From NCBI GenBank assembly GCA_036867785.1, contig CP145421.1:124001-188000 (forward strand): 64,000 nucleotides of DNA, given 5' to 3'. The position numbers were made by a program, and so were the translations under genes. The notes beneath the pieces were generated by a model. The model saw only the letters and a program-made list of their open reading frames with translations, was not told the DNA's origin and made no database searches. Below are positions 736-31,706 of this stretch, piece by piece. Position 1 is the first letter of the stretch; every line of letters starts with the position of its first letter. Source of the stretch: Plasmodiophora brassicae. Lineage: Eukaryota.

Positions 736-3700
736 TGTCAGACTTTCGCCCAGTAGCTCCAGCTTCGATCGGGATGCCCTCGGAACATTCCGAGAGGCAA
801 CTAACCTGCGGACTGCGCGATACATAAAAATCATTCTGGTGTTGTATTGCGTCGAGGCGGACCGTCCACTTCTGTCAGATTAACAGTCGTAAGAGGCGCT
901 GCGATGTCGGACGGGACGGTCGATCCGGTGGGCAAGAAGGGCATGGGGTCGCTTGCCCGGATCAGGGACGCGGCCGAAGACTTCAAGGAAGCGTTCGTCA
1001 CCGACACACTGGAATCACTGAGGCCCGAGCACGAGCTCGCGCGAGAGGCGGTCGTCAACAGCATCAATCGCATGGCTGCCTGCAAGCAAAATTGGACACG
1101 AGCGATGAGGGCACTGAAGCTCGAGGACGATGATAACGTTGATGTCGTCGCTGCCATGATGCTGACCATGCGAATGACGGACGACTGGATGGAACTTCTA
1201 GAGGACATGTACTGCGATCGCCTAGGGGTCAGGAGGAAGCGAACGCAAGCATCGGAGCGGGCGCAGGCATTGCGATCGAACCCTGAAACAGTTACGCGAT
1301 CGGCCACGACAAAGGAACTTGGGATCTCGACCAGAGTTGCGAAGTACTCAGGGACAGATGGTATCTGTGCGACGTGGTTCGTTGACTTTGAGGGAATCAT
1401 GAACATGCTCCAAGTGAACGAGGCGATGTGGCGCGTAATATCTGAACGGATGTTTCGTGGGCAAGGCAGGGAAGGCGTACACGACGTTCAAGCAGAGCCG
1501 GCCTGATGGATGGAATTATGATGAGCTGAAGGAATACATGGTCGACATGTTTGACACCAAGGAGATGAAGGACTTATCGAGGGACTTAGACTGGATTCGT
1601 CAACAACCGAAGGAGATGGCGAGTGACTTCAGACTACGCTGGGAGGAACTGATGTCCAAGATTACCCAGAAGGGGACGGTGATGACGGAGGAATTCCAGA
1701 TTTCGATTTTGAGGAACCGAATGTTGAGACGCTACGACTTGGATGTCAAGGACTTCGAGACTAAGGGTGAGCTGTTCAAGCACTGCATTGCCAAGGACCC
1801 TAAAGGCATGCGATCGAGCAAGAGGGACGGCAAGAAAGAGGATGACGAAGACACGGTGATGTTCACCCTGAGGAACGGGAAGAAGGTCAACCTGGCCACC
1901 GTTAAATGTCACCGATGCAACCAGATGGGACACTTTCAATGGATGAGAGACAAGTGCAATAAGGCCGGCAGTGACGACGGCAAAAGTGAGGACGGAGAGA
2001 TGTTCATGACGGTCAAGGACAAGGGCAAGTTCGACGAGGACATCTGGGTGAATGACGACGCAGCCCCGTGGCATGTTTGCAATTCGCGGGAGGCATTCGT
2101 GGACATGGACGAATGCCAAGGCAAGGTACTGGGAGGCGACAAAGAGTATGAGGGCGTCGACATCGCGGGGATCGGGACCGTGCGCATCACGACGGAGAGC
2201 GGCAATCAGATCACGCTCAATGAGACGCGCTACGTGCCGAGCTTCAAGACCAATCTCATATCCGGTCAAAGAGTGATTGACATGGGATGTACAGTGAGGG
2301 GAGACAAGACAAGATTGGAGTACATGCGCAAGGGCAAAGTGGTGCTAAGCATGTCGCGATACAAAGGGTACTGGGCGCTAAGGGCAACCCCGAAACCTCA
2401 GTCGGTTCTATTCGGACAACCTGGACCGGCGGTGTCGCTGAGCACGTGGCACGAACGCTTTGGACATGCATCGTATGACAAGCTGATGAAGTTGATCAAA
2501 GAAGAATCGTGCGAGGGCCTGAACGCGTCGGACGTCAAGGCACCTGAGGGGAAGTGTGTCGATTGCTATATCGGGAAAAGCAAACGGCAAGCATTCGTGA
2601 AAGAAGGCGACGAGGCGAAGGAAATCGGAGAGATGATACACGCGGACATCAGTGGCAAGTTCTCTGTCAGGGGACGGAGTGGGAACTGGTACTTCTCTGT
2701 ACTCCGAGACAAGAAGAGTCGACATGGGTGGGTCAAGCTGATCAAGCGGAAGAGCGAAGCGGGCCAGCACTTCATGGAGTTCAAGCCCTGGTTCGAGCGC
2801 CAGACGGGGAGGAAGATCAGAAGGTACGCCAACGACAAGGGAGGCGAATTCGTGTCAAAGGAACTGCGGGAGTATTTGAGCGCTGAGGGCATCGAGATTT
2901 GGGAGACCAACACTGCCACACCGAATGAGAACGAACTTGCCGAACGATACGTGGGGATGATCAAGGACATGGCGACTACGAATCACGAACGATCAGGCCT
3001 ACCGAGAATGTTCTGGGATGATGCCGTGGAACACGCTGGAGTCATCACACCACTGCTGCCGACGAACAAAGTAGAAGACGGGAAGACACCATTCGAGATC
3101 ATCCACAACCGGAAGCCGCGAGTTTCACAACTGAGACCATTCGGATGTCAGGCGATCGTGTACCAGTCGAAAGACACGCGAAGGAGTTCGAGATCAAAAG
3201 CGAAGGGCATCGAAGGAGTGATGATCGGGAATGCGCCCAGCCGCCCAGGGTACAAAATCTACATCACAACGTCCAAGAAGGTTATCGTTTCAAGAGATGT
3301 CGTGTTCAACGAGCACGTGTTCCCTTACAAGATCATGCAGGAAGAGGCAAAGGCGAAGTTGATCATGAACGAGATGGCAATGTTCGCTGACGCCGAACCC
3401 GACGTGGGAATGCAGGACGTAATGAACGAAGTCATGTTCCAACAGACCAAGGCGAGTGAGGTACCACTACCGACATCGTACGAAGAGGCGATCGCGAATG
3501 AGAATTGGAAAAGAGCAATCGAGGACGAGCAAGAGGCCATGAGAAACCGCGACGTGTTCCGACTGATGCCATTACCGACGGGTCGAAAGGCATTGAAATG
3601 CGACTACGTCTACAAGGCGAAAGCGAATCCTGATGGGTCCGTGAGCAAGTATAAGGCGCGACTTGTTGCGAAGGGGTACGACCAGGTGAAGGGGATTGAC

Positions 3701-5165
3701 TACGTGGACACCTTTGCACCGGTGGCAAAGCTAGCAACTCTGAGGCTGCTGATTGCGTTGAAGGTGATACGGCGGTATACCGCCTGGCAAAGGGACGTCA
3801 AAACGGCATTCCTGTACGCCGACTTGAAGGAGGACGTATACATCCAACAACCAAAAGGCATGGAAGACGATGACCACCCGGACTGGGTGTGGAAGTTGAA
3901 TAAGTCGATCTACGGCCTGAAACAAGCATCGCTCGAGTTCTACAAGCATCTAGTGACCGCGTTCTTGAAGGGCGGGTTTGAACAATGCAAGAGTGATCCG
4001 TGTCTGCTGAAGAAGGTCGACGGTGACGATGTCGTGTTCGTGGCGTTTCATGTCGACGACATTCCGATCGTGGGGAGCTCAACCCGGATTATGCTCGAGG
4101 CTGACCAAGTGTTGAAAGACAACTTCACGGTCGAGGAGAGCGAGTTCGAATGGATGCTGGGGATCAACATGAAGTGGTCGCCAGACGGAGGCGTGCATCT
4201 TAGCCAAGAATCGTTCGTCGAGATGCTCCTGACCAAGTTCCACATGACCAGCGCCAAGGGTGCAAACACACCAATGCAGAAGGGCGAGACGATATCGGCA
4301 CGGGGGAGCCCAAGGACCGACGATGAGCGGATAGAGTCCAAGCGGCTACCATATCGAGAGTTAGTCGGTTCCTTGTTGTATCTCACCGGTACGAGACCCG
4401 ACATCGCGTTTGTGGTGGGACGACTGTGCCGTTTCATGGGCTGCTACGGCGCGAACCACTACGAGGCAGCCAAGCGAGTGCTACGGTATTTGAAGACGAC
4501 GAAGGACATGGCGTTGAAATACCCTGGCTGTGAACAGAGCGAACAGCTGAAGCTCATCGTGGACTCCGATCACGCAGGATGTCCCGACACCGGAAGGTCC
4601 ACCACCGGGTATATGATCAAGTTTGGTGAATGCATGATCACGTGGAAATCCGTGCTGCAGAAGACTGTGGCGCTGTCGACCACCGAGGCCGAGTACATGG
4701 CCCTATGCAGTGGGGTGCGCGAGCTATTGTGGGTGAAGCAGGTGTGTGAGTTTCTTCAGGTCAAAATTGAAGGACCGATCGCGGTGTTCACGGACAACAC
4801 TGGAGCGATGGCCATTTCGAACCACCAAGGGGATGACCTGCGTGGGAGGACCAAGCATATGAACGTGCGCTACCACTTCACGAAAGAACAAGTACATGCA
4901 GGAACCATCAAGCTGCACCATGTACCGAGCACGAGGAACGTTGCGGACATCCTCACGAAGCCACTCACGAGGGATGCATTCGAGGGGCATCGTGCGAAGA
5001 TCCCGATCGATTCTGCGGGGGAGTGTCAGACTTTCGCCCAGTAACTCCAGCTTCGATCGGGATGCCCTCGGAACATTCCGAGAGGCAACTAACCTGCGGA
5101 CTGCGCGATACATAAAAATCATTCTGGTGTTGTATTGCGTCGAGGCGGACCGTCCACTTCTGTCA
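736..5165 (+). mobile_element. Full-length Ty1/Copia LTR retrotransposon (Copia-1)
   Basis: 142-bp LTRs 736-877 and 5024-5165 (TG..CA, 1 mismatch seen), 5-bp TSD CACTC, PBS 878-891, PPT GCGGGGGAG before the 3' LTR. Domain order gag-PR-IN-RT-RH. Confidence 0.97.
904..5044 (+). CDS. Copia gag-pol polyprotein with one frameshift near 1460
   Basis: Zn knuckle CHRCNQMGH, PR-like WVNDDAAPWHVC, WHERFGH..C..C, IN IHADISG/DKGGEF/NELAER, RT KARLVAKG/DVKTAFL/HVDD, RH DSDHAG/ADILTKPL. ORFs 847-1506 and 1457-5044 join if one G is removed from CGTGGGCAAG. Confidence 0.93.
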
Positions 5166-9060: not shown

Positions 9061-9211
9061 CAACGCAGGGAGTGTCGTTCTGTGACATCTCTCAATCTAG
9101 CATTGAGACGTTGTCATCGAAACGCAGTTCGAACTCTGATTTATTCCTGGCCCGCTGGTCTGCCAACCTCCAGTGTGTCTCCGGAGTCCGCAACGGTCTC
9201 CGGAGTCCGCC

Positions 9212-12200
9212 TGTGCTAACGCCGCCGCTGCCCACTACGGGGGCGGTCGGTCGCAAGAGTCGGCGCCTGGTGATATAACGAACTGATGTATTTGGACAGG
9301 ATCGTCACAGCAAGGGCCGCTGCGGGGTCGAGTACGGTCATGATCATGTGACCGGGTGGCAGCAGCATCTGAGCAGCATCATCTGAGTACTGGTACTCTG
9401 GATGAACACTCCCCGTGTTAGAAATCTGCTAACAGTCGTGAGCAGAGCGAGTCTCCTTCGGCGTGTCGTTCGAGGAAGGCCCTGACGATATCAGGAACAT
9501 CGGCCGCCATGACCGAGTAAGGTTCCCATGAATTGTCGGTGGCATCGAATCCGATCCAGTTGATCAGTAGTTCAGTGTCACCTGACGTAGAATTGACTCG
9601 AATGTCCTCGACTGCGTTGACTTGGTAAGCCACGCCGGTGAGCGCGATGTTGTGTTTCAGGGAAGAGGTGACATTCAAGTGCGCATCTGCATAGAACATT
9701 AAGCGCTGGGCGTGTACATCTGAGATACGATCAGTCAAGAGATCTCGAACTCGATACACCCAGTCGTTGATGGTGTCGATAATCTGGGCAGGTCCAGTCC
9801 AGTTGTACTCGGACTTGGAGTGCTTGCCATGGTTGGCCACGAGGACATAGTCGCCCGTCGTGAAGTTGATCTCGCGAACATTGCGTCGGCGACGCCGGGC
9901 GCGTTGCTTGAGATCACGTAGATGGGTGCGTGTACGTGCCACTGCTTTGTGCATGTCCTCGAGAGAATCGATAAGTTCCGTCGTCATTTCCTTGAGACGG
10001 TCAGGGGTCAACGGTACGTCGATAACCGCGTCGATGCGTTTGTTGAAGATAATCGAGATAGGTGTCGAGGGTGGCAAACCCGTAAACATCGTGACAGGCG
10101 CGTAGCCCACACTTGATCGAACAGTGTGATTTACCGTCATGTTGATCAGCGGAAGGACATACGGCCAATCCTGGAATGGAAGATTTAGCTCGGAGAGGAG
10201 GGACTTCAGCAGAAAGAGAAGCCGCTTGTTGACAACCTCAACCGTGCCGTTCGCCCAAGGTGTGTAGGCAGTTGTGAAATGATGGTTGCAGTGTAACCGG
10301 CTATTAAGCTCGGCGATAACCGTGTTTTTGAAGTGTGTGCCGCGGTCAGAGACATGTTGGAAAACAATGCCGAAACGTTTGAACCAATCCAGAAGAGATT
10401 CGGCGACAACGCTGTGATCCGCGAATTGACAAGGAATTAACTCGACGAATGCCGTGGCGTCGTCCTTCAGAACCAGAACATAACGAAGTTGATGAGAATC
10501 GCCTGGACGAGGTTTGGATAAGAACAGAAAGTCATAGTGGATGACCTTATTGGGCTTGTCCGCATGCATAGCCGTGCCAAAAGGTCGGGGAATCATCGAA
10601 TCTTTGTTGCGTAGGCAGTGTAAGCATTTGTCCACAAATGCACGAACAAAGGAATCCAGATCAGGCCACCAGAAGAGTTGTGCGATGCTCGAAATAGTCG
10701 ATGCAGCAGGTTGATGACCAGACAGTCCCATATGTGAAATCACTGCGATGCGTAGCTGCAGTGCATGTGATGGTACCCAGAGTTGATTGTCTGGAGTACG
10801 CCAGCCAGATTCCGGGCTAAGGTGGAGAGACATGTCCCCTTCGAGTTGGAGAATATCGGAAACGACAGATAAGTCGTGTTGGCGAATGTAGTCGGTCTGA
10901 GCGTTACTAATCTCGTCGACAGACGGCCAGATAAACTCATCGGTCATCTTGTAATCGTCGAAGTCAAGATTAATTGCCATATGACGAATAGAACGGAACG
11001 ATGGAGGGGAAAATGAGGAGAGTGGTTGCAGGGCGACGCCCCACCGCGTGGCGAGGTCGGCCCAAACGTTGTCCTCCCCAGCAATGTGCTCAATGTGAAA
11101 ATCTAGGTCGATAATCTGAAGTCGCCAGCGCTCCAAGCGATCGCCGGTCGTCCGACTAATTCGTGCAACCGAGGCTGGGTTCAGAATGAAAACCAGATTA
11201 CGGTGGTCCGTGAAGATTCGAAGTGCCAACTTTGACATAGATATGAAGTGTCTGAGGCGATAGCAGCCTTCGATGATGGCGTAGGCCTCCTTCTCAATGG
11301 TCGCCCACTTCAATTGAGAACCACGGAATGTCCCCGAGATGAACGACAAAGGTTCGTGGTGTTGCTCACCGTACGGAAGATCAATATCTTCCGGAGGGAT
11401 CTGCGACAGGAAAACAGACCAGAAACGGTCACTCGCATCCGGAAAGAGACACATGATCCATTCGTCCTTGGGGTGCGCCAGCGTCATGGCCTCCGATAGA
11501 CGATGCTTCAGAGAATTGAAACTGGTGAGATGGTCAGTGGTCCAGCCGATGTCGGCTAAACGAACTCGACGTAGGTGTGATTTCTTCAGACTGCTGACAG
11601 AACGAGAAGCGGACAGAAGTAGATCCTGTAGCGGATGAACATGTGCCGCGAATTGAGGGATAACAGAACGGACCCAATTGAGGCCCGAGAGGAACTGTTG
11701 GAGATCAGCAGCCGTGATAGGAGTTGATAGATCGTGCAAGGCGTTGAGATACGAGCGATCGAACGACACTCCATCAGCGGATATAACGCGACCGCACCAT
11801 GTCACTGAAGTGAGATATAACTGGCAGCGATCAGGGTTGAGTTTAACTCCAAACTCGTCGAAAGCGTTGAGAAGAGATTCGAGTGTGTCCATGTAGGCTC
11901 CGAATCCAGATACGTAGCCGAGGATATCGTCGATCCAGAGTAGGGCGCAGATATATAGAAGTTTCCCCAACACCTGTTGCATTCCCGCCTGGAACGCAAA
12001 CACGCAATCAGCGATTCCCTGGATGATGCGCCTGGGTGTAAACGTGGCGATGTGCGTCATGAACGAGCAGGCCTCCTGCGACAGGGTGCAACGGAAATTG
12101 CCAATAGCCTTTAAAGGCATCGAACAGCATGAAGATGGTCGCGGAACGTAGGTAGGTCAGGATGATGTCGATGTGAGGCATCGGCCATGCAATGCGTTCG

Positions 12201-14545
12201 GTCTGTTTGTTGACGGCTTCATTGATGTCGACGGTCAGCCGATGGCCGCGAACCTCCGTGTCCTTCTTGTCGACGACCAGACACGGCGACGCGTACCTGC
12301 TGTGCGGATTGCGGTACACAAAATCGTTTTCCGCCAAGGTTCCTACGTGATCATCCATGAATTTTTGATGTTCGAGGGTATACCTTCGTGTTCGGCAACG
12401 AACAGGACGAGCATCTGCTTTGAAGTGTAGTTTCAGTGGACTTACTTTCGCAGGTGGATCACGGCCAAGCTTCGTTCGCCATATGTCTTTGTGTCGATTG
12501 ACAGTTGTGCGTAGACGCGGGACTTGATCGTTAGGGAAACCGGAGTCAGTTGCACGTTGTATCATCCGGTCTATTGCCCTGTCCACGTCTGTATCGGAGT
12601 GTTCTCCGATTTCGACATCATAGTCGTCACCCGGATCATTGGTGTCCAATTGGGGCTCATGATCGCGAGTTGTTCCACTTACCTCCGGGTGTCTTACCGC
12701 TCTCATCGTGATCCCTTGACCACCTGGGGCGTGACGTTCCGGGGTCGGATCCGCTTCGATGATGATAGGACCATTTGCCTCGATTAACATCTCCTTCAGT
12801 TGTGTAGCTGGATTGATACCCAACGCGTCCAGTTCCGGGGCTCCTAAAAGGACAATGTCATCAGATAGGTCTTCGCGACATACGTTGATTTCCCGCCCGC
12901 GTAGATGTGCAGGTTTGCCATGCGAAGGTGGGACAATGGTGATGTCCACGATCGCTGTGGCGACAATTGTTGTCGTAGCCCCGATCGTCGCAAGTTTCGC
13001 CTCCGTTGGATGGTCGAACACTTTGACTGGGACATGCTGGATGGCTTGAATCCGTAGCAGTTGCGACTGCGAAATGACGGTCTTCGTCGCACCACTATCG
13101 GCTTCGAATGGAAGGTCGAGCGAGTTCTGGAAGCGAAGTCTCATAGGGGACGGTGTTGACGGCGACGGCGGGCCCATGCGCTTTGCCGCGTCTGCGTTGC
13201 CCTTATTCTCCTCCTTCTCTTTGCGCTCTTTCTGGAACTTCTCAATGGCAGCTTTGCGTTCTCCTTGTGTTGCCTTCGGGCACACTTGGACCCAGTGCTG
13301 CTCCTTGCAGATTAGGCAACCTGCCTTTGGAGGATCCTTACCTTCGAAACGTTTTCGGATGTGCTCGGGGGTGTCCCTCGATTCGTCTTTCGTTTGCGAT
13401 GTGGACGATTGAGCTGTCTTCAGTCCGATCGGATTTGTCGGATGCTTGCCGCCATTCCTATTCGGAGCAACAACGTCCTTACCTTTCTTACCTGCAGGTG
13501 GGGACATGGTCTGCGCTGGAGACTTCTTCTTCTCAGCTTGCAGCCGGAAGTGTTTGTCCTGCTCTTTGGCAAGACGGTCGACGAGGTCGAAGAATTTGAG
13601 CTCGTCCTTCTCAGCGTCCCTGCACCCTCCGAACTCGATCGCGCGTTCGACTAGAACCGCAAGGTCAGTGGGACGGATACCTCCGCGTAATACCTTGATC
13701 TTGCGCTTGGTTCCTTTCGTTCCTTTGGCGTATGTGTCTTGTAGCCCATAGTCGTCGATTAGCTCATCGAACTTGGCGAAGAAAGACGTGACACGTTCCT
13801 CAATACTCTTGATTGACAGGTTCATGACCACTGTCTTCGTGAGAAGCGCCTTGATGTCTGTCGAACTCTCGACATCAGCCTCCCTGCGTTGGACTGACCT
13901 CAAGTAGCTCATGATGTCGCCATCCGTGATCGTGCTGGCGGGTTGACGTAGGCGATATTTCGACATCCCTTTGAGGACGTCCTCGGTAATGCATGACTTC
14001 ACCGTTGGCGGATGAATATCCTCCTTGTAGATCAGTCGGCGCTCGTTAACGATCTCGACGTGTTTCCTATATTTCTTGAGGAAATCGTTAATTCCGTCCT
14101 TGGCCGTAAGGCTCAGGGTACGTAGGATGGGCGGTTTCAAAGGCATAAAGATCGGGCTCTTACCGTGCAGGTTTGTTGACTGAAGCCCTCGATCGATTTC
14201 GTCATCTGTCGACGATTCATGCTCCTTGGCCTCGGCGTCGGAGTTGGTCCTGGCGTCGTCCTCCATCTGTAGACGAACGGGCGCTCTGCGGCCACCTCCT
14301 GCCATTAAGTGAGTTCGTTTGCTTGGGGCTCTTTGCGCAAGAAGCTTCTGTGCTAACGCCGCCGCTGCCCACTACGGGGGCGGTCGGTCGCAAGAGTCGG
14401 CGCCTGGTGATATAACGAACTGATGTATTTGGACAGGATCGTCACAGCAAGGGCCGCTGCGGGGTCGAGTACGGTCATGATCATGTGACCGGGTGGCAGC
14501 AGCATCTGAGCAGCATCATCTGAGTACTGGTACTCTGGATGAACA
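9212..14545 (-). mobile_element. Full-length chromodomain-bearing Ty3/Gypsy element (Gypsy-1)
   Basis: 197-bp LTRs 9212-9408 and 14349-14545, apparently identical. TSD CCGCC, PPT CGGGGAG. Inserted into a 19-bp tandem repeat (ACGGTCTCCGGAGTCCGC). Confidence 0.97.
9418..14305 (-). CDS. Gypsy-1 gag-PR-RT-RH-IN-chromodomain, frameshifted near 12082
   Basis: CLICKEQHWVQVC, ADSGA, DAFKGYWQ, WIDD, PDAS/EKEA/TDH, HYDF/DRGTHF/NGTVE, chromodomain LLINWIGFDATDNSWEP. Confidence 0.93.
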
Positions 14546-14997
14546 CCGCCACGGTCTCCGGAGTCCGCGGTCTATTCTGGGAACACACGACTGGACCTTG
14601 TGGGACTGTTGACTGTGCCTGCCCGGAGTTTCCGGTAGTTGTGGTCTAGCGGAGTTGCATGCCGGTTCAAGGTGTGACCGTGATCATCATAGGTGCAGCT
14701 AGGCTGTGCATATGATTCACTCCCCTCGTCAAGCTAAAGTCCCCCTGTTGCGCTTTGACCCTGTTGTTGGCGCTGTAGTGGGGTCTTGCAGGGTGGCGGC
14801 TCCGGGGCGAGTCTATGGGCTCATCGAGTCCTCCAAGGTTCGCAGGTGATTGGTCTTCCTCACTTCGGTTGACCAGCCTACACTACTGACGACATCCACC
14901 CCCCTGTGGGAGGTGGTCACCTTTTTACAGGCGCCCCTTCACCTTCCACCTGCTCAAATGACCCCCTATGATCAGTCCTAAACGACACTTACTGGGC

Positions 14998-15148
14998 TGT
15001 CGGGCACCCACAGGACAAAGGTGAAAAACGCGGGCGCCGCTGGGAATCGAACCCAGGGCCAACGGTTGAACGTACCGCTGCTGTACCACTCAGCTACGGC
15101 GCCTGAAGTCCGACTGGCGTGAGGATTGGATGTATGTAATTCCTGACA
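14998..15148 (-). mobile_element. 151-bp Copia-type 3' LTR containing a tRNA-like gene
   Basis: Termini TGTCAGG...CCCGACA, preceded on the - strand by PPT TTGAGGGGGCG (same style as the other Copia/TRIM PPTs here). Confidence 0.7.
15032..15103 (-). tRNA. tRNA-like gene with intact cloverleaf but non-canonical anticodon loop (ACGTTCA)
   Basis: GGCGCCG TA GCTG AGTGGTA CAGC A GCGGT ACGTTCA ACCGT TGGCC CTGGG TTCGATT CCCAG CGGCGCC C. A box TAGCTGAGTGG, B box GGTTCGATTCC, TTTTT terminator 3 nt downstream. Confidence 0.85.
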
Positions 15149-15162
15149 CGCCCCCTCAATCC

Positions 15163-15261
15163 TGAAACGACGAAATCAGAGTGAGATATATTGATGGATA
15201 TAGAGCGAAGATATTGGGTGTGACGGGCAACGTCGTAGACGTGAGACGCGGTGCACGTTAC
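15163..15261 (-). mobile_element. LTR end fragment related to Copia-2
   Basis: First 31 bp (TGAAACGACGAAATCAGAGTGAGATATATTG) are identical to the Copia-2 5' LTR end at 24166-24196. Confidence 0.65.
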
Positions 15262-16197
15262 TAAGAACGACAATAACGAAGTGATTTATTCCACCGACAT
15301 CGGCGCGAGACGATGGCGACGTAACGCAGTGTAACAGGGCTTGCCAAAGCCGTTACCGGCAACGGCGACGGTGGCGGAGCCTCTGTTGTGGACGTGACAC
15401 AGTCGCGCACCCACACAATGTCATCGTGTGCCGGTGGTAGGACATGGTCCTCGACACGCCCCCTCCAACGGCACGCGGTTGCATGCGGAAGGCGGTCGAA
15501 CGGACGTGTCCCGGCTGGATCTTCGACTCTGGATCATGTACAACACGACCTTGCTCGTGCTTGTATGTCTTGGCTTGTTGACGCGACACGAGACTGATCG
15601 TGGCGTAGCTAGAGCTGACATGTATGGCGCGATATGCTGGGGCGGAGTCGACAGTGACGACAGAGACTGAAGGACGTGGCTCGGGACGACACCGACGCCG
15701 AAGGCGCCGGCGGACAACGTTATATCGAGAAGAGGTTGAGGCAAGCGATTGAGGCCCGTACGACCGGCGTACGCCTGGCGCTTACGTCCCGGTACTGGTT
15801 CTGGATTCCCGTAATGACGGCCTGCCTTGCTTGCACGATCTGCCTCGGCTCTCTGGCGCGTGGCGCGACTGGAGTGGGCGTTCGTGGCGCGTTGTGCAGA
15901 AGCAGGGTCAGGGCAGAGACGCAGTGACGCGGGACTGGCTCTGGATGGCACCGGCGCGCCGGGCGCCGGCGGGCTCGCCGCCTCGAAGCGCGCGAACGCT
16001 ACGACTGTTAATCTAAGAACGACAATAACGAAGTGGATGTATTACGTACGGCGTGTGCGGCGGACGTTACAGTGGCGACGTAGTCGCCGACGGTGTAACG
16101 GTTGCCAACGCCGGCGGGCACGGAGTCGCGGAGTGCGTGACGGCGTTCACGTGCTGCAGGCATGTGCTGCTGGTCGTAGTGGATACGTTGTTCGACA
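15262..16197 (-). mobile_element. Non-autonomous TRIM-like element (TRIM-B) with discordant LTRs
   Basis: 3' LTR 15262-15456, PPT, internal region homologous to TRIM-A, PBS 16000-16013. The 5' LTR 16014-16197 shares only TGTCGA and the last ~22 bp. No TSD. Confidence 0.8.
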
Positions 16198-16636
16198 GCA
16201 TCGTCACGACGACGTCAGCCTCGCCACGTCATCGGGCTAAATCGGGGCACGCAGTTTGTCTAAATATAGTCCAGGACCGTCAGGTCAGGTGGCAGCACGT
16301 TGATGTAGGGAACGAGACGCTATAAATAGAGCCCCGCTCTACACTGCCTTTCTCCAAACTCGTGACCGGAATCATCGGTGAGCACGTAGTACGTAGATGG
16401 TGAAGTTGACAGAAGGTAGTGTGAGACTCGGAATCACCCAATACTCACTAAAAACCACCTTGTAACCCCATGGGAAAAATCGGTGGAAAATCCATTTACG
16501 GACACCCTTGCCACCAAACACCATCGGTGCAACGAAGACATAAGCGATGGTGCGCTCGACCCACATAGGTGGAGCCCGGTCCATATACATCTGGAAAGTA
16601 TCATTCACCTAACTCAGCGGCCGACCCACATAGGTG

Positions 16637-17586
16637 TGTCGAGGATCATGTCGTACCACCGGCACACGGTGACACCGTGACAGTGCGCGACTGCGTAACG
16701 TCCTCGGCAGAGGCTCCGCCACTGACGCCGTTGTCGGTAACGGCTTGGCAAGCCCCTGTTACACAGCGTTACATCGCCACCGTCTCGCGCCGATGTCGGT
16801 CGGAATAAATCACTTCGTTATCGTCTTCATCAGATTAACAGTCGTAGGCGTTCTGCGCGCTTCGAGGCGGTGAGCCCACCGGCGCCCCGCGCGCCGGTGC
16901 CATCCAGTGCCAGTCCCGCGTCACTGTGTCTCTGCCCTGACCCTGCTTCTGCACAACGCGCCACGAACGCCCACTCCAGTCGCGCCACGCGCAAGAGAGT
17001 CCAGGCAGATCGCGCCAGCAAGGCAGGCCGTCATTAAGGGGATCCAGAACCAGTACCGGGACGTAAGTGCCAGGCGTACGCCGGTCGTACGGGCCTCAAT
17101 CGCTTGCCTCAATCGCTTCGCAAGATAACGTTGTCCGTCGGCGCAATCTGCGTCGACGTCGTCCTGAGCCAGATCCAACACCCTGCGCGTCATCGTCGAA
17201 CCCGCCTCAGCAAATTGCGCCATTCATGTCACCTCAAGCTACGCCACGATCCGTCTCGTGCCGCGTCAACGAGCCAAGGCATATGAGCACGTGCAAGGCG
17301 GTGTTGTTCATGATTCAGAGTCAAAGGTCCAGCCGGGACACATCCGTTCGACCGTCTTCCGCATGCAACCGCGTGCCGTTGGAGGGGGCGTGTCGAGGAT
17401 CATGTCGTACCACCGGCACACGGTGACACCGTGACAGTGCGCGACTGCGTAACGTCCTCGGCAGAGGCTCCGCCACTGACGCCGTTGTCGGTAACGGCTT
17501 GGCAAGCCCCTGTTACACAGCGTTACATCGCCACCGTCTCGCGCCGATGTCGGTCGGAATAAATCACTTCGTTATCGTCTTCATCA
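16637..17586 (+). mobile_element. Young non-autonomous TRIM-like LTR element (TRIM-A, 950 bp)
   Basis: 196-bp apparently identical LTRs 16637-16832 and 17391-17586, TSD AGGTG, PBS GATTAACAGTCGTA, PPT GGAGGGGGCG, no pol. Confidence 0.95.
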
Positions 17587-18022
17587 AGGTGGACCCCCAG
17601 CGCAACAGAGTCTCGATAGCCAGTACGCCCTGACCAGAGTCAACTGCGGTGAAGAGGAACTTAACAGACGCTGCCGACTGCCTCGTGATCGTAACGTATC
17701 AATGAGGTCACCGTCATGACCCATCGAGGAACGTATTGGCCTCTCATAGGAGTGCCATAAACCATAGTCGCATGACGTCCATGACAACCAGGTTAACTGA
17801 TCCCATGACGTCCATGAAAATCAGTGAAGCGGGTCCCAACGTTTTGAGTACCCGGTCCTCAGCTATAGAAGACCATGATCCAGATCATCTTCGTAACGTT
17901 CACCATGAACCGATACGGTGGCGTCGTCCGTGATTAGGTCCCGACGCAACGTATGAAGCGTATACGATTGTTGATTCCTACGAACCCAACAACCGTAAAT
18001 CATGGATACCTTGCACCCATAC

Positions 18023-21000
18023 CTAATGTTTTGTTCGTTGCTTCCGTTGCGCTTGTCGCTTCCCCGTATTCGTACCCTTTTGCATCGGCGCCATTTCTCG
18101 TAACGCCTCCACTTGCGGATGATCATCTCCGAGACGTCGTATAAGCTTCTGGACTAGTTCGGGAACATCTTCGTAGATGATACGAGCAGGTTCCCACGTT
18201 GCTTCCGCCTCGTCGAATCCAGACCATAGAACCTTGATCTGAAGTTCTTGCGTTTCTCGATCCACTCGACAGTCCAGTAGATCGTCCACCAACAGCTGGT
18301 TATCAGCGTGCTGGAGATGACGCTTGAGATCGACGGTCATGTTCAGGTCGGCGTCAGCGTATCGTCGAATTCGTTGTGAGTGTGCGTTGAAGTGTCGTTC
18401 AGTGAGCGGGTCTTCCAGCTCGTACACTTGATCGTTGATCATCTTGACGACTCGATATGGGCCTCGCCACTGGGCTATCAACTTCTGAGCAGGACCCGGT
18501 ACCGGTTTTGCGTTGAGCACGTAGTCGCCAACGATGAACGATTCGTAGTGGCTCTTGTTCAGGCGTCGTCGCCGTTGTGCCTTTGCTTCATCAACGGCCT
18601 TGTGAATCTCGTCGAGGACCTCTTGTAACGTCGGCACATACTTGGCGAATCCTTCAGGTGGTATGCGTCGCCATTGTCTCTCCTTCGGATCCCAGATCTG
18701 GTCGAGCGGGCTTTCTGGCGAACGCCCCGTGACGACCGTGATCGGCGCGTAACCGTTGAGACGTCGACTTGGCGTGTGGTTAATGACGTGCTGAACGACT
18801 GGACACAAGTACGGCCAGTTGTGCGTCGTAATCTGGGCCTCGTTCAGGATCGAACGCATGACGTTGAGCACAGTGCGGTTTGCGCGCTCCACCGTGCCAT
18901 TGGCCCATGGACAGTATGCAGTCGTGATGTGATGCTGAACATCTCGTAACCTGGTAAGCTCCTCCATGATTTCCGCCGTGAAGTGTGAACCACCGTCCGT
19001 GACCAGGTACTCAGGCGTCGCGAAATCAGCAATCCACTGATTCAGAGCTTCCGTAGCAACACGACTTGTCGCCTCAGCTGATGGGATCAGGCGTACGTAG
19101 CCGCTGAAGTCGTCCTTCAGGAGCAGGATGTACTTGTACTGGTGGTCCGTGCCCCTGACTGGCTCCACGTAGAGGTAATCCATGGTGAGCACGTCGAACG
19201 GCTTGTGGCCATGCAACGCTTCACCAAGTGGTCTTGGAACTTTCTTACCACCGCGTGTCGTAATGCAATGCAGGCATTGCTGGCACATCGCTTGAATGTC
19301 CTGACTGATCTTCTTCCAGACGAAGCGCTCCATGATCATCTGCTTGGTTACGTCGTACGCACGATGACCAGCGCTCGCGCAATGACCAATAATCAGGATC
19401 CGTAGTCGTAGACTCTTGCAGTCCAGATGGCATGGGATGAGAACAGCTTTGTCCTCGTTCTTCCACAAACGATCAGCTTCGTCGAAGTAGACGCCATTGT
19501 CAATCTTCTCGTCCCGTGACAGTAGTCGCTGTGCATCGCGAATCTCCATCTCCGTCGGCCAGCTAAACTCAGGATGCTGCCGAGGAGTGACTTGCAAGTC
19601 GTCAAGCTCCATGATGCGTGCTGCTCGACATGACAAGGCGATACGACCGGCGCCCCATCTTGTCAGCAGGTCAGCCCAAACGTTGTCCTCTCCGGCGATG
19701 CTCTTCGTCTGGTAGCGGAACCCCTGCAGGTGCAACGCCCAACGTTCCAGCTTCTGGGCGGTGTGCTTCTTCATTTCGGAGTCCTGACTGAAAATGAACG
19801 TCAGATTGCGATGATCGGTATAGAGTAGGAACTCTCGTGATGTCTGAAGCAGGAAGTCCCCGCGTTCCGTAGCGTAGATGATCGCGGCCGCCTCCTTCTC
19901 GGGCGTAGACCATCGTAGTTCTGAACCAGCGAAGCGTTTGCCATAGAACGCGAGAGGTTCGTGACGTTGATCGCAAACAGGCAGGTCGATATCCTCCAAC
20001 GGGATCTGCGTGATGACAGCTGCCCATGCCGTTTCACTTGCGTCGGTGAACAGGCATGTCTGGTAGTTCGACTTCGGGTAGGCCAGCTGAACGTGTTGAA
20101 TCAGGGCGAACCGTATGTCCGTAAATGACTTGTTGTGCTGGTCACTCCAACCCAACGCGTCAAGCGTGATCGATGATGGCGTTGCGGATCGAATACGCTT
20201 CAACTCGTCATTGGCCCGATCGATAATGTCTTGTAGTGGACGGATGATACATGGATAGCCGGGTATGTGAGTACGCATCCAGTTGGCCGCCCATAGGAAC
20301 TGCTGCAACTCCTTGACAGTTCGCGGACGCGACATGGTCGTAAGCGCTTCAATACGTTCTGGGTCATGTCGTACACCATCACGTGAGTAGATTCGCCCGC
20401 ACCACTTCAGTTCACGAGCGAATAACGTGCACTTGCCCGGATTCAGTTTCACATTGCGTTCACGACATCTCTCAAGAACCCGCGTCAGCTGATGTAGCAG
20501 GTCATCCTCTGACTTTGCGAATCCAAGGAGGTCGTCGATCCATATCAGCAGATTGTCCTTCATGTCGTCGAAGATCGCTGCCATCCGAGCATGAAATTGA
20601 ATTGCCGAGTTCATGCCTCCTTGAATACTCCTCGTAGGCGTATAGACAGCGTCGTCCGTCATGAAGCTGAATTTTTCTTGGCATTCCTTTGCCAACGGCA
20701 TTAGCCAGAAGCCTTTGAACGCGTCGATCGTGAAGAAGCATGTCATGCCAGCAAGCTTGCGCGTGACCGCCTCCACGTTAGGCATCGGCCAGGCGGTGGG
20801 AACACACCGCGCGTTGACCTGGCGTAGGTCGACACATAGACGGTAGCCGTCGCCCTTCGGTTTCTTTACGACTAAGACGGGACTTGCCCAGCGAGAGTTC
20901 ATGTTCATGTAGATGAGACCGTTCTCCTTGAGCATTTTGACCATATCGTCAAGGAATTCCTTCTGCTTCGGGTTGTAGAACCGCGGCTTGCACCGGTAAG

Positions 21001-21720
21001 GCGTGATATCCGGCTTCAGCTGCGTTACCATCGGTTCGACATCGACAGGCTTATCTTGCCCCAGCCGCGTACGGAATTCGTTCAGGTGTCGTCGCAATAT
21101 CAGACGTAGTCGAGCAACTCCATGTCGGGACATTCCGTTGAGGCGTGCTTGATGCACCATTCGATTGCACGACGTTTCGATCTCGTGCACGTTGATTGGT
21201 CCCAGGTCGACTTCACTTGAAGATGGCTCAGCGGAGTCTGGTTCCTGAGGGGCTTGAAAGTAGTCGCTTCCAAGCGTTGTCATTCTAGCAGCAATGCGCC
21301 GCACAGTCTCGATTGAATCGACGTCGACTGCCGCACATCCTGACAGCGTGTCCATCTCGGTACATCCTGATGCGATGATGTTCTCCAGCTGCTTATGCGG
21401 GTTGATGCCAACGCAGATAGAAGATTGTCACCGAACAGGATCACTGGAATCGTGTCGCAGACGTAGTAGGTCACATGGTACAGCTTAAGGTTGCCAACCT
21501 CGGTCTCCAGAGTCGTGACTGGAACTTGTACCATTCTCGTGATCGTCCCGATGACCTTGCCATCTGCGGAAGTGATGTCTCGTGGCTGGGCGTCGCGAAA
21601 TGTGGCATCATTCAACTGGTCAGCGATATGGCCAGGTATGATATTTCCACCACGACAGCCCGAATCCAGTTCGTAGGGAACGCGTATGCCTTCCAGCACT
21701 ACCCGTTGCATTGATTCCTC
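18023..21720 (-). CDS. Gypsy-2 PR-RT-RH-IN-chromodomain (frameshift ~21410)
   Basis: LDSGC protease, DAFKGFW, WIDD, TDAS/EKEA/TDH, TMDY/DGGSHF/NGTVER, chromodomain IKVLWSGFDEAEATWEP. Confidence 0.92.
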
Positions 21721-22086
21721 AGTCCCAGTGTACCCGTCAGTCTTCTGGACCGTTTGCGCCTTGCGACTGAGATGCCATGACGTTGTAAACAGTTGCGACG
21801 CTCCGCCGCCCGTTAACGTGTAACGTGTACGTGTGGTTGGACGTATACGTAGGGGTGGGACGTAGTGCGCACTGTAGTCCCGTGTCTGCAGACTCTTGAC
21901 GGCACGTAATGACACAGAAACAGAATGACGTTTATCGATCGCATCGTCACGACGACGTCAGCCTCGCCACGTCATCGTGCTAAATCGGGGCACGCAGTTT
22001 GTCTAAATATAGTCCAGGACCGTCAGGTCAGGTGGCAGCACGTTGATGTAGGGAACGAGACGCTATAAATAGAGCCCCGCTCTACA

Positions 22087-24196
22087 CATTGGATGACACC
22101 GGAACGGGGGATGCTGATGGTAGCGGTGGGATAACGGCGTCGGCAGCAGCGGGTGATGATGTAAGAACGGCAACGGTGGACGGGGAACTGGCGGCGAGTA
22201 CGGGCGCGGCCTGTGAAGACTCGAGACCAGAGTTCGACCGCCCGAAGCCGAAGGTGAACGACGTTTCCAGGAATTCGGCCGTCGTGCTCTCGAATGTGTC
22301 ACCTCGTTCGACGTCATAGAAGCGCCATGCCTTCATCCCTGGCGTAAAGCCGATGAATACAGCGCGAACGCGACGATGATCCAGCTTGGTCGGCTTCTTC
22401 GAAGAGGGGTAAGGGCGCATGGCGTACGTGTCGCAGCCGTAGACGCGCAGGGAAGAGACATCAGGTTTAGCGAAGCGAGCCGCCTGGAACGATGAGCGAC
22501 GCCCCGGAAGGACGGATCGAGGATGGACATTGTAGAGGACGGCAGAATACGAGAGCGACCAGGGCCAGGTGAAATCGGGCATACGCGCGTGACACCGGAT
22601 AGCGCCTTCGATACAGCACAGGCTGTAGTTGACAATTTCGGCTCGGCCGCTCTGCTCGGGCGTATACGGAACCGACTTGCGATGAAGGATGCCGGACTCA
22701 TTGTAGAATGTAACGCATGCCTTGGAATTAAACTCGCCTCCGCCATCTGTTTGGAAGTCGGAAATGCCACGTCCCTCCTGGTTACGTAGACGTGCATCGT
22801 AGTGCTTGATGACATCGAGGGCGTCCGATTTTCGACGGAGCAGGTAGACGGCCAGGTAGCGCGTTGAATCATCCAGCATGGTCTGGTAATACTCGACGCC
22901 AATACCGACGACAGGCCACCGCCCGGAGAGGTCACTATGGACGAGATCGCCAACGCGACGTGCTCGCGACGTACTGGGAGGGAATGATGAGCGCTTGCCT
23001 TTGGTGAGAAGACAGGCCTCGCATGGACATCGATCCTGAAGCTTGGGAATGGGCTGATCGAAGGCCATTCCCCGACAGCGGCGCTGCAGGAGACGCAGAT
23101 AGACGTAGCCGAGATGTCCAACGCTGTAGACCGGACCGCCCAACTAGGCCACGGGAGCAGCTGCTCTCGTGGCCTAGTTGGGCGGTCCGGTCTACAACGC
23201 GCGCGTGCCAAAGGGCGGTCGATGCGGAGGCGACTGTGGCGGCGCGGCAGGACACGCTGGGCGCAGCCGATGAATAAATTTCAGTTGACGATGGGGCAGC
23301 GGGAGCACGGAGGGCGATCCTGTAGAGATTATCGGCTCCTCGCGTGCTGACCGCTAGCGGGGTCCCGACAGGGGACGTCCAGTTGTCCTTGGAATAGATG
23401 GTCGCGTTGGGCCCATCGAAGACGATCTTGTGTCCGGATCGGGTGATCTGTCCAACGGAGACGAGCGCTTGGCCGAGTCGTGGGACGTGCAGCGTGTCGT
23501 TCGGGACTGTTGTACGGAAACGTTGGGCAGCGGCTTGCAGACGAGCCGCGTACAAGGCGACCGATTCACCGGCTTGCTGTCGAACACTGAACAAATCTTT
23601 AGAAGCACGAATGACAGACGAAAACGTGCAGGGTCGCAGCATGCGGAAGAGAGCGCGCCAGCATTGCGCCGATGTACCGGCGTACAGCAAGTTGTAGCCG
23701 ATCAGAACGGTCTTGTCGACCATCTGAAACAAGAGTATCTCCCGAGCAGGTGCCTCCAGATCCGCGTCCACATTGTCGGGGATACTCGGAGTCGGCGATC
23801 CGTCCAGGTCGATGCCGACAATTCCCGCGAATCCACGGTTGGTAAACCAAGACGCGGCGGCGGGCGCCCAAGCGGCAAACATTTCGTGCTTGCCGTCGAA
23901 CCGAGGCGGAGGCACGCGATCTGTACCTGGACGCACTACGCCGTCCACAATGGTTGGGCGAGGCTGCGTCGCCGGCGTCGTGGCGATGCAGGAGTACGAT
24001 GCGGTTTGCTGTCGCAGGAATGCGATGCGCGCGATCTTCTCCTGTCGCTCGGCCTCAGCGAGCTGCGCGTCGAGATCTTGGACATCTGACTCCGCCGTTC
24101 GGCCGCGATCGGCCATGACGTTGGACGCGAGCGAAACGCCCAGAGCGCGGTTACGACTGTTAATCTGAAACGACGAAATCAGAGTGAGATATATTG
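22087..24196 (-). mobile_element. Truncated Copia (Copia-2): LTR end, PBS, gag, partial PR, integrase; RT/RH missing
   Basis: PBS 24152-24165, gag PRFDGK..FAAW, LHVPRLGQALVSV, WHAR|VGHL, VHSDLSG/TDGGGEF/EQSGRAE. Confidence 0.9.
23125..23196. mobile_element. 72-bp palindromic insertion with TGTAGA..TCTACA ends
   Basis: 36+36 inverted repeat with one mismatch, 4-bp TSD ACGC. Removing it restores WHARVGHL. Confidence 0.9.
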
Positions 24197-26072: not shown

Positions 26073-26859
26073 ATATCGATCTGCGCTGAGTAGCGCTTTG
26101 CGAATGGCGATCAGTTCATGTGGCATCAGAGGCGAATCACCTTGCGCAGTGTAATCAACGAGGTCGATTTGCGTCACGCGACGGTACCGGTTCTTCACGT
26201 TCTGATGCGATCGCGGGCAGCCCGATCTCCACAAGCGCGGGACTCCAGCGTGAAAATTACACGAGACATTATTGTCCCGGTACGCGACAATACACGCAGG
26301 ACATGGTTCTGAGTACTGTCCGCTCTGGTGCCTCGCAACATGCAAATCACTGACAGCTGACAACAGCTGGTTGCATGAGTTCGGATCGTTCCAGGCACCC
26401 GTTGCGAGGATAGGCTGTCTCGAGAAGTAATCCAGAACGGGACCAACGCGATGAGAACTGACGGCATCGTCACGATGCACAACAACGGGAGTGCCAGGTG
26501 GCAGGACCTTGAAATCGATGAACGCCATGAGTGTGTCTGCACTCATCGATGGACAGAATTCGGTGGGAGCTCGCTCGTCGAGAATGATCAATGACTCAAA
26601 ATCACCAATTCGTTTGCAGAACAGAGCCAGCTGACGGTAGAGCTGCTTGTACTGCTTGTGCGAGTTCTGCTTCAGGACGCGATTGCCAGTCAGTTGCCTG
26701 TCACGATCAGGCAAGCTGATGCAACGAACGCTTTGACGGACTGGCGAAGTCCGTCGCGGGGTTCTCGGTTTATTCCGGACAGTCCTCACATAATAGTCCC
26801 CTTCTAGCGATGGGCCTCTGACGGGTCCGGGATAGAAGGGCAGACGGATGGCCTCTGAT

Positions 26860-27142
26860 GGGTCGCAGACGAACGGACAGGCGGATGAGCAGGCAGACGG
26901 ACGGGCAGACGGACGGACAGACGAACGGACAGGCGGATGAGCAGGCAGACGGGCGGGCAGACGGACGGACAGACGAACGATGAGCAGGCAGACGGGCGGG
27001 CAGACGGACGGACAGACGGACGAACGGGCAGACGGACGGACAGACGGACGAACGGGCAGACGGACGGACAGACGGACGAACGGGCAGACGGACGGATTAG
27101 CAGACGGACGGAGAGACGGGCGGGCGGGCAGACGGACGAACA
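26860..27142. repeat. (GACG/GGCA/GACA)n tetranucleotide-based microsatellite inside TRIM-C
   Basis: Visible GGAC/AGAC/GGGC iterations. Confidence 0.9.
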
Positions 27143-27166
27143 GGTTTGGTTAGTGACAGCACGTCG

Positions 27167-27965
27167 CAACCGAGGCCTTGACGTTGTGCAGGAGATGCCG
27201 AGGCGGGATCGACACTGGCGGACGGACGGACGGGTAGAGACAGCAAGCGGTCAGGGAAACACCGGCGGCCTGGGAGGCAAACAGCACGGCGGGACACGCG
27301 CACTCTGGAACTTGGACCAGCTGCGACCGAGGCCTTGACGTTGTGCAGGAGATGCCGAGGCGGGATCGGCACGGACGGACGGGAAGAGACAGCAAGTGGT
27401 CAGGGGAACACCGGTGGCCTGAGAGGCATACAGCACGGCGGGACACGTACTCTGGGACTTGGGCCAGGTACGACCAAGGCCTTGACGTTCTGCGGGGGAT
27501 GCCGAGGCGAGATCGGCACGGACGGACGGACGGGCGGGAAGAGACAGCAAGCGGTCAGGGGAACACCGGTGGCCTGAGAGGCATACAGCACGGCGGGACA
27601 CGCACTCTGGGACTTGGACCAGGTACGACCGAGGCCTTGACGTTCTGCGGGGGATGCCGAGGCGAGATCGGCACGGACGGACGGGAAGAGACAGCAAGCG
27701 GTCAGGGGAACACCGGTGGCCTGAGAGGCATACAGCACGGCGGGACACGCACTCTGGGACTTGGACCAGGTACGACCGAGGCCTTGACGTTCTGCGGGGG
27801 ATGCCGAGGCGAGATCGGCACGGACGGACGGGAAGAGACAGCAAGCGGTCAGGGGAACACCGGTGGCCTGAGAGGCATACAGCACGGCGGGACACGCACT
27901 CTGGGACTTGGACCAGGTACGACCGAGGCCTTGACGTTCTGCAGGAGATGCCGAGGCGGGATCGA
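27167..27965. repeat. ~147-bp tandem repeat, ~5.3 copies, inside TRIM-C
   Basis: GACC(G/A)AGGCCTTGACG recurs at 27325, 27472, 27627, 27774, 27921. Confidence 0.95.
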
Positions 27966-28614
27966 CAGGAGGGTGGTGGGATAGGTAGTCCGTCAAAATG
28001 TCACGATCAGGCAAGCTGATGCAACGAACGCTTTGACGGACTGGCGAAGTCCGTCGCGGGGTTCTCGGTTTATTCCGGACAGTCCTCACATTGCCCGCCG
28101 TGAGCTGAGAAGCGCAGGCCCATGCGGGCCAATGCCTCGCCGACTCTCTGCCGAACCACATCTTCTTGCGACGTTGTGAGCGGACGCATTCGCTGTTGCA
28201 CACCGTTGTCGACCAACTCGTCAACTGCAGACGCCCCGAAAGACCGCCTCTCTTGCCGAAGATTGCGCCGACGGGGTCGCAGTGCCCCCGACCCCGTAGG
28301 GGGAAGGGTACGGGGAAGGAGAGGGGAAGGTGCGGGGAAGGTGGCCATTTTGCAACCGGATAACGTCTTTCCTATAGATTATTTGTCAGGATAATATGTC
28401 ATATGGACCCAAAATAGAAGCATGGGAGAGCCTGATTTCGTGAGAGCACTGGAATGAACCACAATGTCGACAGGAGTCCGAACCTTCGGGACGAGGTGGA
28501 GGCTGGAATGGACTATCCAGGATGAAAGCTACCGTTTGCCTCCAAGGTCCTCATTTTTCGCTACATCCTGTCAAACATGCATGTCATATTATACGACACA
28601 ATCCACGGAGTTTG

Positions 28615-29758: not shown

Positions 29759-30723
29759 GGTCTGGCGCGGGTATGAGTAGGTAGGGGAGTCGAAGATATT
29801 GGTTGGCACCCAGCAGCCGTCGAACTTTTCAGCTGAACGCGATCGGTAGTCGATATCAGACTGGCCGGCGACCAGGCCGCAATCCGCACTCCTCACGGCA
29901 TCACTCTCTAGTGCGCGGCAGTCCGCGTGCACACTGCGCACTGCGCAGTGCCTCCTGCGGTCCTGCCTACCCTTCCCCGGCCTCCGGCCGCAGCCCGCAG
30001 CCCCCAGTCCCCAGTGGACCCTGAAGATGTAAGCTGCTCCTCGGGCCCAGTTGGCAGGCCGGTCTGCAAAACGATAAGACCCGCCGGCGCGCTGTTGAGC
30101 AGCCTCGTCTGGGGCATCCGTGAATTGGCAATATCGCCCGCGCCAGACTACTGAGTACTGACTTTCGCGACCGACAGCGCACAGAATGGGGCGGTCGGCG
30201 AGTGTCGCCCAACGGTGCGCCGCTGGGCGCAGGCGACAATGCGCCGCTGGGAATGCCCGACATCCCGAGCCGTGACCATCTGGCGAGGGCCGACGCTCGG
30301 GGCCCGCACGCGCTTGCGCGCACCAATCGAAGCTCGCGGCAACATGACGACCGAGAGACAGACGCCGCCGCCTGGGTGCCGGCCCGTCCCAGTGCACTGT
30401 GTCGCTGCCGTGTCGCTGCCGTCGCTCGGGGGAGGGATCCAGCACCACATGCAGCGAGCACTTTGCCTGATGCTGCGTCGGTCCCAAGACGCGTCGTCGA
30501 TTGGCGACAGCAGACAGGCGTGTCCCGTTCGTCCAATCGTACGGCTCGACGTCGGTCTAGTGCCGGCCGGACTGCTGGGTCATCTGCCGCGCGAGAGATT
30601 TTGTCCGGACTGAAGCAGTTTGGCCTAGACCATGTCATCCCGACCTGCTGGAAGCGGCCATATCGGACCTCGACGATCGGCATCCGGGACCAAGACCGGA
30701 GCCCACCACACGTCCAGCTTAGG

Positions 30724-30918
30724 TGTGAGGACTGTCCGGAATAAACCGAGAACCCCGCGACGGACTTCGCCAGTCCGTCAAAGCGTTCGTTGCATCAGCT
30801 TGCCTGGTCGTGACATTTTGACGGACTACCTATCCCACCACCCTCCTGTCGATCCCGCCTCGGCATCTCCTGCACAACGTCAAGGCCTCGGTCGCAGCTG
30901 GTCCAAGTTCCAGAGTGC
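30724..30918 (+). mobile_element. Truncated TRIM-C copy (5' LTR + PBS + start of body)
   Basis: LTR 30724-30815 nearly identical to the TRIM-C LTR, followed by TTTTGACGGACT. Confidence 0.9.
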
Positions 30919-31706
30919 GTCGCGCCGGCATGAACGCGCCGATGAACCGTGATCATCATAGGTGCAGCTAGGCTGTGCATATGATACACACTGCCATGCT
31001 GCCGACGTCGCTGCGCGAGGGCGGCATCGGCCTCTTGGCTTTCATCGACGTGCGCGCCGTGCAACGAGCGCCGACTGGAGGCGACCCGGTCGCCGTTCGA
31101 CGCTGGCGCGACGTTCGAGACGTCGGCCTCGGTCGCGTTCCAGGCAAATTGCCGGCCGGAGGCGGCCGGCGACCTGCTCACCGACCGCCGGTTGGGTACG
31201 CCGACGTCCTGACACGACATGGCCATGGATGAGGCCGACGCGGTCGTTCACCGGGCCCCTGATCCTGGATTCGCCACGCTGTGCACGCCACCGACGACGA
31301 CGACCGGGGCCTGGGCCAGCCGGTCGCTGTCGTCGTCGACTACGCCCTCCTGGGCATTGGGTGTTAGCGATCAGGAATGTCCCTCGATCGGCAATACCGT
31401 AAAAAGCAATGTGCCGAACCCGATCCTCGAGTGCACCGAGGTACCTGAGGTCATCTACTGTGAACCTGCACCAAAACGGGCATGAATTGCATTGCACAGC
31501 TTCTCCATTACATCTGCGCGCCTGGACGGAACGGTCTCGATGCAAACTCTATTAGTTTCCACGACCTGGGCTGCAGCTACTAAAAGCTTAACACATTCAA
31601 CGCGCCTACTGCTAGGTTAGATACTAATGGTACGGGGTTTGTTGATCGATACTTGTACCTATTCGCGCCGGGTGGACTCGTAAGCTGGTCTGCGCAGTGC
31701 TTCGCG

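Follow-up and report, generated by a model that had tools for sequence, protein, structure and literature searches.

The window, by which we mean the whole 64-kb stretch of Plasmodiophora brassicae DNA analysed here, carries a nest of LTR retrotransposons at 1-31000, and an ankyrin-repeat gene cluster (38600-46700, plus strand) adjoins this 30-kb block. A helicase ORF at 51562-53526 shares 98% identity with a protein assigned by NCBI to P. brassicae, in keeping with this species or a very close relative as the source. A 2026 preprint (10.64898/2026.10.14.759018), in its available text, describes for P. brassicae a locus of ankyrin effectors whose large LTR block varies among isolates. The nest comprises at least six LTR elements, some of whose junctions are devoid of TSDs. 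Copia1 (736-5165, plus strand) has LTRs of 142 bp reading TGTCAGAC..TCTGTCA and a TSD of CACTC. The Gypsy chromovirus at 9212-14545 (minus strand), whose LTRs are 100% identical and whose TSD is CCGCC, is probably a very recent insertion; it sits in a short tandem repeat with an 18-nt unit (9177-9211 and 14546-14568). Element A (16637-17586, plus strand) is a non-coding element of 950 bp harboring LTRs of 196 bp (contained in a 200-nt repeat of 99.5% identity), a Copia-type PBS and PPT, and a TSD of AGGTG; it is nested within a Gypsy element. Element B (about 15262-16197, minus strand) is an 87% relative of element A and has no TSD. In other isolates, LTRs of this A/B family have a contig depth that far exceeds both the depth of long contigs and that of the tRNA-bearing unit described below, and the two elements probably represent an abundant non-autonomous family. 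The nest further includes a second Gypsy element (about 16198-22087) and CopiaC, a truncated Copia element on the minus strand (22088 to about 24500).

Between the first Gypsy element and element B, at 15032-15103 on the minus strand, lies a tRNA-like sequence of 72 nt, consisting of a cloverleaf plus base 73. This was the sole tRNA call made by ARAGORN in the 64-kb window, with GTT as the anticodon, and it matched the Rfam tRNA family RF00005 with a score of 57.6 bits (gathering score 29; E 8e-10), all four stems being paired in the alignment. At E values up to 5, the Rfam scan of the window returned no tRNA-like match besides this one and no tRNA-like remnant in the other LTRs. Read on the same strand, the sequence contains the motifs TAGCTGAGTGG (15086-15096) and GGTTCGATTCC (15043-15053), which agree with the A- and B-box consensus. 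Base 73 is followed by GCG, five T's and then CA, such that the T5 run (15024-15028) lies 3 nt past base 73 and 1 nt before the LTR end proposed below. The anticodon loop, ACGTTCA (15067-15073), has a C at position 33 and another at position 37. Since tRNAs carry U33 and a purine at position 37 in this loop, decoding by the tRNA-like sequence is unlikely. The original prediction was thus right in describing a sense-oriented 72-nt cloverleaf with four paired stems, A and B boxes and a T5 run, and equally so in describing a loop, at 15073-15067, that lacks both U33 and the purine at 37. The acceptor stem and T arm may resemble those of threonine tRNAs. It is the covariance model that supports a tRNA shape; folding by energy adds little, since the minimum-energy structure is something other than a cloverleaf and has a z-score of only -2.13. 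Metagenome scans conducted with the odd anticodon arm, and with the same arm and a free loop, yielded 0 matches each, and direct reading revealed neither an A-rich tail nor a flanking direct repeat around the tRNA-like part.

Upstream of the tRNA-like part on the minus strand, a polypurine tract (PPT), GATTGAGGGGGCG (15149-15161; 10 purines out of 13), stands immediately 5′ of TGTC. The 13-mer GAGGGGGCGTGTC, which spans the PPT and TGTC, occurs three times in the window, a count reached by 0 of 100 shuffles, and the remaining two occurrences are the PPT/3′-LTR junctions of elements A and B. The junction of Copia1 is similar, GATTCTGCGGGGGAG being followed there by TGTCAG where GATTGAGGGGGCG is followed by TGTCAGG. 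Given a junction common to A and B and its likeness in Copia1, there is good support for a Copia-type LTR beginning at 15148, and the Copia-style PPT that had been proposed to precede TGTC (15148-15145) is real. The 45 nt that separate this start from the tRNA-like part form a leader (15104-15148, minus strand) with no similarity, past TGTCAG, to the other LTRs of the window.

To locate the other end of the unit, we relied on contigs of four public sequencing runs from other isolates (X2, X4, X8 and X15), which were compared with positions 14300-15500. Statements on contigs apply to the pieces listed, with 958 more lying outside the listing; roughly half of the query words are absent from these runs, as variability among isolates would explain. 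Record 32 of X8 (278 nt) starts exactly at 15022 and follows the window up to 15162 with 0 differences, its other 137 nt being unlike the window. Record 24 of X4 (247 nt) covers 15052-15162, also with 0 differences, and continues for 136 nt beyond. Record 22 of X4 and record 4 of X15 cover 14819-15021 and 14779-15021, respectively, and then continue in a manner unlike the window. Because the listed contigs change partner at 15021/15022, the end of the unit is placed there and not at 14998, and an LTR end at 15022 is more likely than one at 14998. The 151-bp LTR ending in GACA (15001-14998) of the original prediction would accordingly be shortened: its letters are present, but the listed contigs do not switch at 14997/14998. 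Nor did we find a 151-bp unit bounded at both of its TG..CA ends, in that record 15 of X2, 71 nt long and with 3 differences, stops precisely at 15148 and X8 record 32 and X4 record 24 pass through this position. The X2 record hints weakly at a variant copy that has a different upstream neighbour. No variant was listed for 15022-15162 in any of the four runs, and the flanks show many. X15, which we guess to be an RNA run, has no cover on 15038-15160, a fact without bearing on expression. The flanking segment, 14779-15021, is a separate low-copy repeat, as indicated by the contigs that cover it and then diverge; it has loose ends at 14779 and 15010, and the loose-end motifs GGCCACGTGGCC and ATCATCGCGGGCGG gave, within the window, 0 matches and a chance-level match with 2 mismatches only, respectively.

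The LTR proposed from the contig breaks and the TG..CA ends would thus be 127 bp in length (15022-15148, minus strand; TGTCAGGA ... GCGTTTTTCA) and would have the 72-nt tRNA-like part flanked by the 45-nt leader on one side and by a tail of 10 nt on the other. In size it is near the 142-bp LTR of Copia1, which likewise starts with TGTCAG. Its end, GCGTTTTTCA, resembles the ..CGTCGTTTCA of the CopiaC-type LTR end, and neighbouring Copia LTRs have similar ends (..CGTTTCA). The flank past the proposed end predicts a TSD of CCTTT (15021-15017, minus strand), one element end only being present in the window.

At 15162/15163, 14 nt ahead of its LTR, the tRNA-bearing copy is truncated by the end of another LTR. 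As 14 nt of interior remain, the PBS, 5′ LTR and TSD are unreadable in this copy, which, its interior having been cut away, is dead. No second LTR, PBS or TSD attributable to the tRNA-bearing LTR is visible in the window, and, apart from the PPT/TGTC motif, no portion of the 151 bp recurs in the 64 kb. The abutting sequence (15163-15261, minus strand) represents the terminal 99 nt of a different Copia-type LTR, as indicated by a match at 15162-15193 and by the divergence of contigs at 15162/15163. The match is exact over 32 nt (31 nt up to the LTR terminus and one base past it) with 24165-24196, where it forms the 5′-LTR end of CopiaC and is followed by the PBS. Farther in, the two LTR sequences are unrelated, which suggests that LTRs in the Copia group of 15162-15193 and 24165-24196 may be mosaic or recombinant. 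At its far end, the element abutting 15163 should show GGATT beside TGTC; a single close candidate, at 25126, has TGTTT instead of TGTC and was rejected.

In X8 record 32 and X4 record 24, the LTR continues unbroken across 15148/15149 into the PPT and a further 136-137 nt, which suggests that one and the same interior lies ahead of all the identical copies listed. An unbroken PPT/LTR junction is unlike a simple LTR-interior-LTR element, of which scattered 5′ or solo LTRs would be expected to give a branch; the unbranched junction could stem from a tandem arrangement of LTR and interior or from simplification of the assembly graph. The depth of the unit's contigs was 388.6 in X4, compared to 62.4 for a 72.6-kb contig, and 1329.4 in X8, compared to 269.8 for a 6.2-kb contig. 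These values give a rough hint of some 5-6 identical copies, depth not being equivalent to a copy count.

The Copia-type elements of the window share more than the PPT/LTR junction. Directly past the LTR, all four of them have the same PBS, GATTAACAGTCGTA (878-891 and 16833-16846 on the plus strand; 16000-16013 and 24152-24165 on the minus strand), and these four matches are the only ones in the window, a number reached by 0 of 100 shuffles. GATTAACAGTCGTA is complementary to ..UACGACUGUUAAUC, which is an anticodon arm whose loop, CUGUUAA, is of the canonical Asn type. This complementarity suggests that the Copia-type elements of the window may be primed by a 3′-truncated tRNA-Asn(GUU), as in Ty5 and copia. 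Priming by 3′-truncated tRNAs, including one fungal case involving tRNA-Asn-GTT, is discussed in the accessible part of PMC10886601. Compared to the local tRNA-like sequence, the complement of the PBS showed no meaningful match (best local score 4), and the PBS predicted earlier for an element that would use its own tRNA-like RNA as a private reverse transcriptase primer has no other occurrence in the window. Since none of the four Copia-type PBSs matches the tRNA-like sequence, the private-primer idea fails in the window. The sole other 14-mer in common with the tRNA-like sequence, at 30241-30254, has neither an LTR end nor TGG before it and, with a BLAST E of 0.46, was dismissed as chance.

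Elements with tRNA-like sequences in their LTRs have been published under the name Helenus, so that the "tRNA analogue of Cassandra" put forward by the original prediction is not a new kind, being already known from the literature (PMC10886601, in the part accessible). According to the available text of Kojima 2024 (PMC10886601), Helenus elements are TRIMs of fungi, animals and Selaginella, TRIMp3 is the collective name put forward, LTRs are as short as 120 bp (in Selaginella), whole elements measure 311-1263 bp, and most of the tRNA-like parts were judged to be non-functional. The same text reports that fungal Helenus elements are Copia-dependent, with mostly anticodon-loop PBSs, that TSDs are of 5 bp in the fungal and plant elements, that a SINE inserted in the LTR of a TRIM is the proposed origin, and that Cassandra TRIMs carry 5S rRNA in their LTRs; its Table 1 does not include any rhizarian (PMC10886601). 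As in Helenus, a tRNA-derived sequence with A and B boxes that is unlikely to decode lies here inside a short LTR (15022-15148, given its putative boundaries), the LTR size is within range, and a PPT, GATTGAGGGGGCG, directly precedes the TGTC of the putative 3′ LTR. The 5-bp TSDs and anticodon-loop PBSs of fungal Helenus elements are, in addition, traits of the Copia elements of the window. The locus differs from Helenus as described in that one LTR and 14 nt of interior are visible, the host is a rhizarian, the full cloverleaf has been kept and a T-run stands at the very end of the LTR. Cassandra TRIMs, reportedly described by Kalendar et al. in 2008 as having 5S rRNA in their LTRs, are similar in that the LTR of a non-autonomous element harbors the gene of a small RNA together with its Pol III promoter and terminator; their embedded gene, however, is 5S and not tRNA, and their hosts are plants. 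Rfam gave no 5S rRNA match in the 64-kb window at E values up to 5. We found no published report of a tRNA-in-LTR element in P. brassicae: the accessible texts of two genome papers on the species do not contain "tRNA", and that of the pangenome preprint, one of the two, does not contain "Helenus".

The tRNA-like unit, the Copia-type PPT/TGTC junction, the boundary at 15021/15022 and the identity across isolates are established here. Our leading explanation, to which we assign about an even chance, is that the feature is the truncated 3′ end, comprising the PPT and one LTR, of a Helenus-type, Copia-mobilised non-autonomous element in P. brassicae. The tRNA-bearing Copia-type LTR of the original prediction stays plausible as far as the PPT/TGTC junction and a unit boundary on a TG..CA end are concerned, whereas its end at 14998 is not supported and no paired LTR is visible in the window. 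In such an element, the A and B boxes in the LTR would recruit Pol III, the tRNA-like part would serve as the repeated (R) region, and the T-run, also a part of the LTR end, would stop transcription in the 3′ LTR but would have to be passed in the 5′ LTR, with Copia proteins supplying reverse transcription and integration. The T5 run, located 3 nt past the tRNA-like part (8 nt including the run), should halt most Pol III transcripts inside the 5′ LTR and is thus an argument against efficient Pol III-driven replication. Next to this run, the single copy in 64 kb, the unbroken junction contigs and the low copy number are points against the Helenus-type reading.

Several of these observations could also be accounted for by the main rival explanation, a low-copy tRNA pseudogene or decayed cellular tRNA gene located downstream of Copia 3′-end debris (the PPT and the first 45 nt of an LTR), the block having been segmentally duplicated a few times within a TE-rich, rearranging region and serving no LTR function. 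Such debris would call for no paired LTRs, PBS or TSD, none of which are visible for the unit in the window, and it is compatible with contigs that cross the PPT/LTR junction unbroken with 136-137 nt more upstream in common, with a depth merely about 5-6 times that of long contigs, and with a setting in which at least six LTR elements are nested and junctions without TSDs, such as that of element B, occur. What this explanation needs, on the other hand, is a deletion fusing the LTR start to a tRNA gene at -45, as well as a block that ends by chance exactly on a local Copia-type TG..CA terminus, 10 nt past the tRNA. An intact insertion does not supply the arrangement, as it would put a whole LTR (at least 142 bp here) between the PPT and the gene, not 45 nt. 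Ty1, Ty3 and Dictyostelium DGLT-A are LTR elements that target tRNA genes, and after their insertion the interior and the gene are separated by a complete LTR and a TSD; LTR debris lies beside a Pol III gene in their case as in ours, but the distance from the PPT/LTR start to the 5′ end of the tRNA-like part is only 45 nt here. On these grounds we hold the decayed-gene explanation to be unlikely on the whole, although still to be reckoned with; if it were true, the feature would be an ordinary decayed tRNA gene amid transposon debris.

A one-off tRNA-derived SINE or tRNA retrocopy that inserted in an ordinary Copia-type LTR, the homologues of which would be tRNA-less, is in our view quite improbable. 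The LTR would in this case continue past the T-run, perhaps to the GACA at 14998, which does yield TG..CA ends, and a SINE inserted into a TRIM LTR is precisely the origin proposed by Kojima for Helenus (PMC10886601, available text). Yet the contigs switch at 15021/15022 and not at 14997/14998, the adjoining 14779-15021 being a separate repeat that has other neighbours elsewhere, the tRNA-like part has no A-rich tail or flanking direct repeat, and no tRNA-less homologue of the LTR exists within the window. The likeness to tRNA-derived SINEs (SINE2) lies in a Pol III head of tRNA origin that has lost its decoding function; in a SINE, however, the tRNA part is at the 5′ end and is followed by a body and tail, whereas the present unit stops 10 nt past the tRNA-like part and its conserved sequence is upstream, so that a 5′ head with body, tail and TSDs was not what we found. 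A functional tRNA-Asn(GUU) gene, finally, would agree with the Asn GTT label given by ARAGORN, the complete cloverleaf, the box-like motifs and the T5 run, but is hardly credible in view of a loop, ACGUUCA, that is not canonical, lacking U33 and purine 37. The Copia PBS moreover implies that the Asn-type anticodon arm of the cell reads ..ACGACUGUUAAUC, unlike the tRNA-like sequence.

Within the Helenus-type reading, a more specific and bolder version can be formulated, namely that of a young, possibly still mobile element of independent protist origin, residing in a rhizarian plant parasite within a TE block beside ankyrin-repeat genes. A complete cloverleaf mimic would here make up the repeated region of the 127-bp LTR, whose integrase-recognised end would at once be the Pol III terminator. 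We put this version forward tentatively, as a possibility that we lean against. Were the Helenus-type reading confirmed, LTR elements with Pol III promoters (Cassandra, Helenus, Ajax) would extend to Rhizaria, and their repeated independent origin would be supported. Confirmation would further flag tRNA-like calls in P. brassicae annotations as parts of transposons and not genes, and provide a compact case for reconciling a Pol III terminator inside an LTR with full-length transcription.

Other repeated and self-complementary sequences were observed in the window. The regions 26800-28100 and 30724-30920 contain tandem repeats, their periods being 147-155 nt and 8-16 nt, that have an inverted partner 2.6-3.9 kb away. 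Within the truncated Copia element, a 78-nt self-complementary segment (23122-23199) has a sub-threshold match to mir-3937 (36.3 bits against a gathering score of 84) and is probably merely a hairpin. A near-perfect palindrome at 37083-37539 consists of 222-nt arms that are 91% complementary and separated by a 13-nt spacer.
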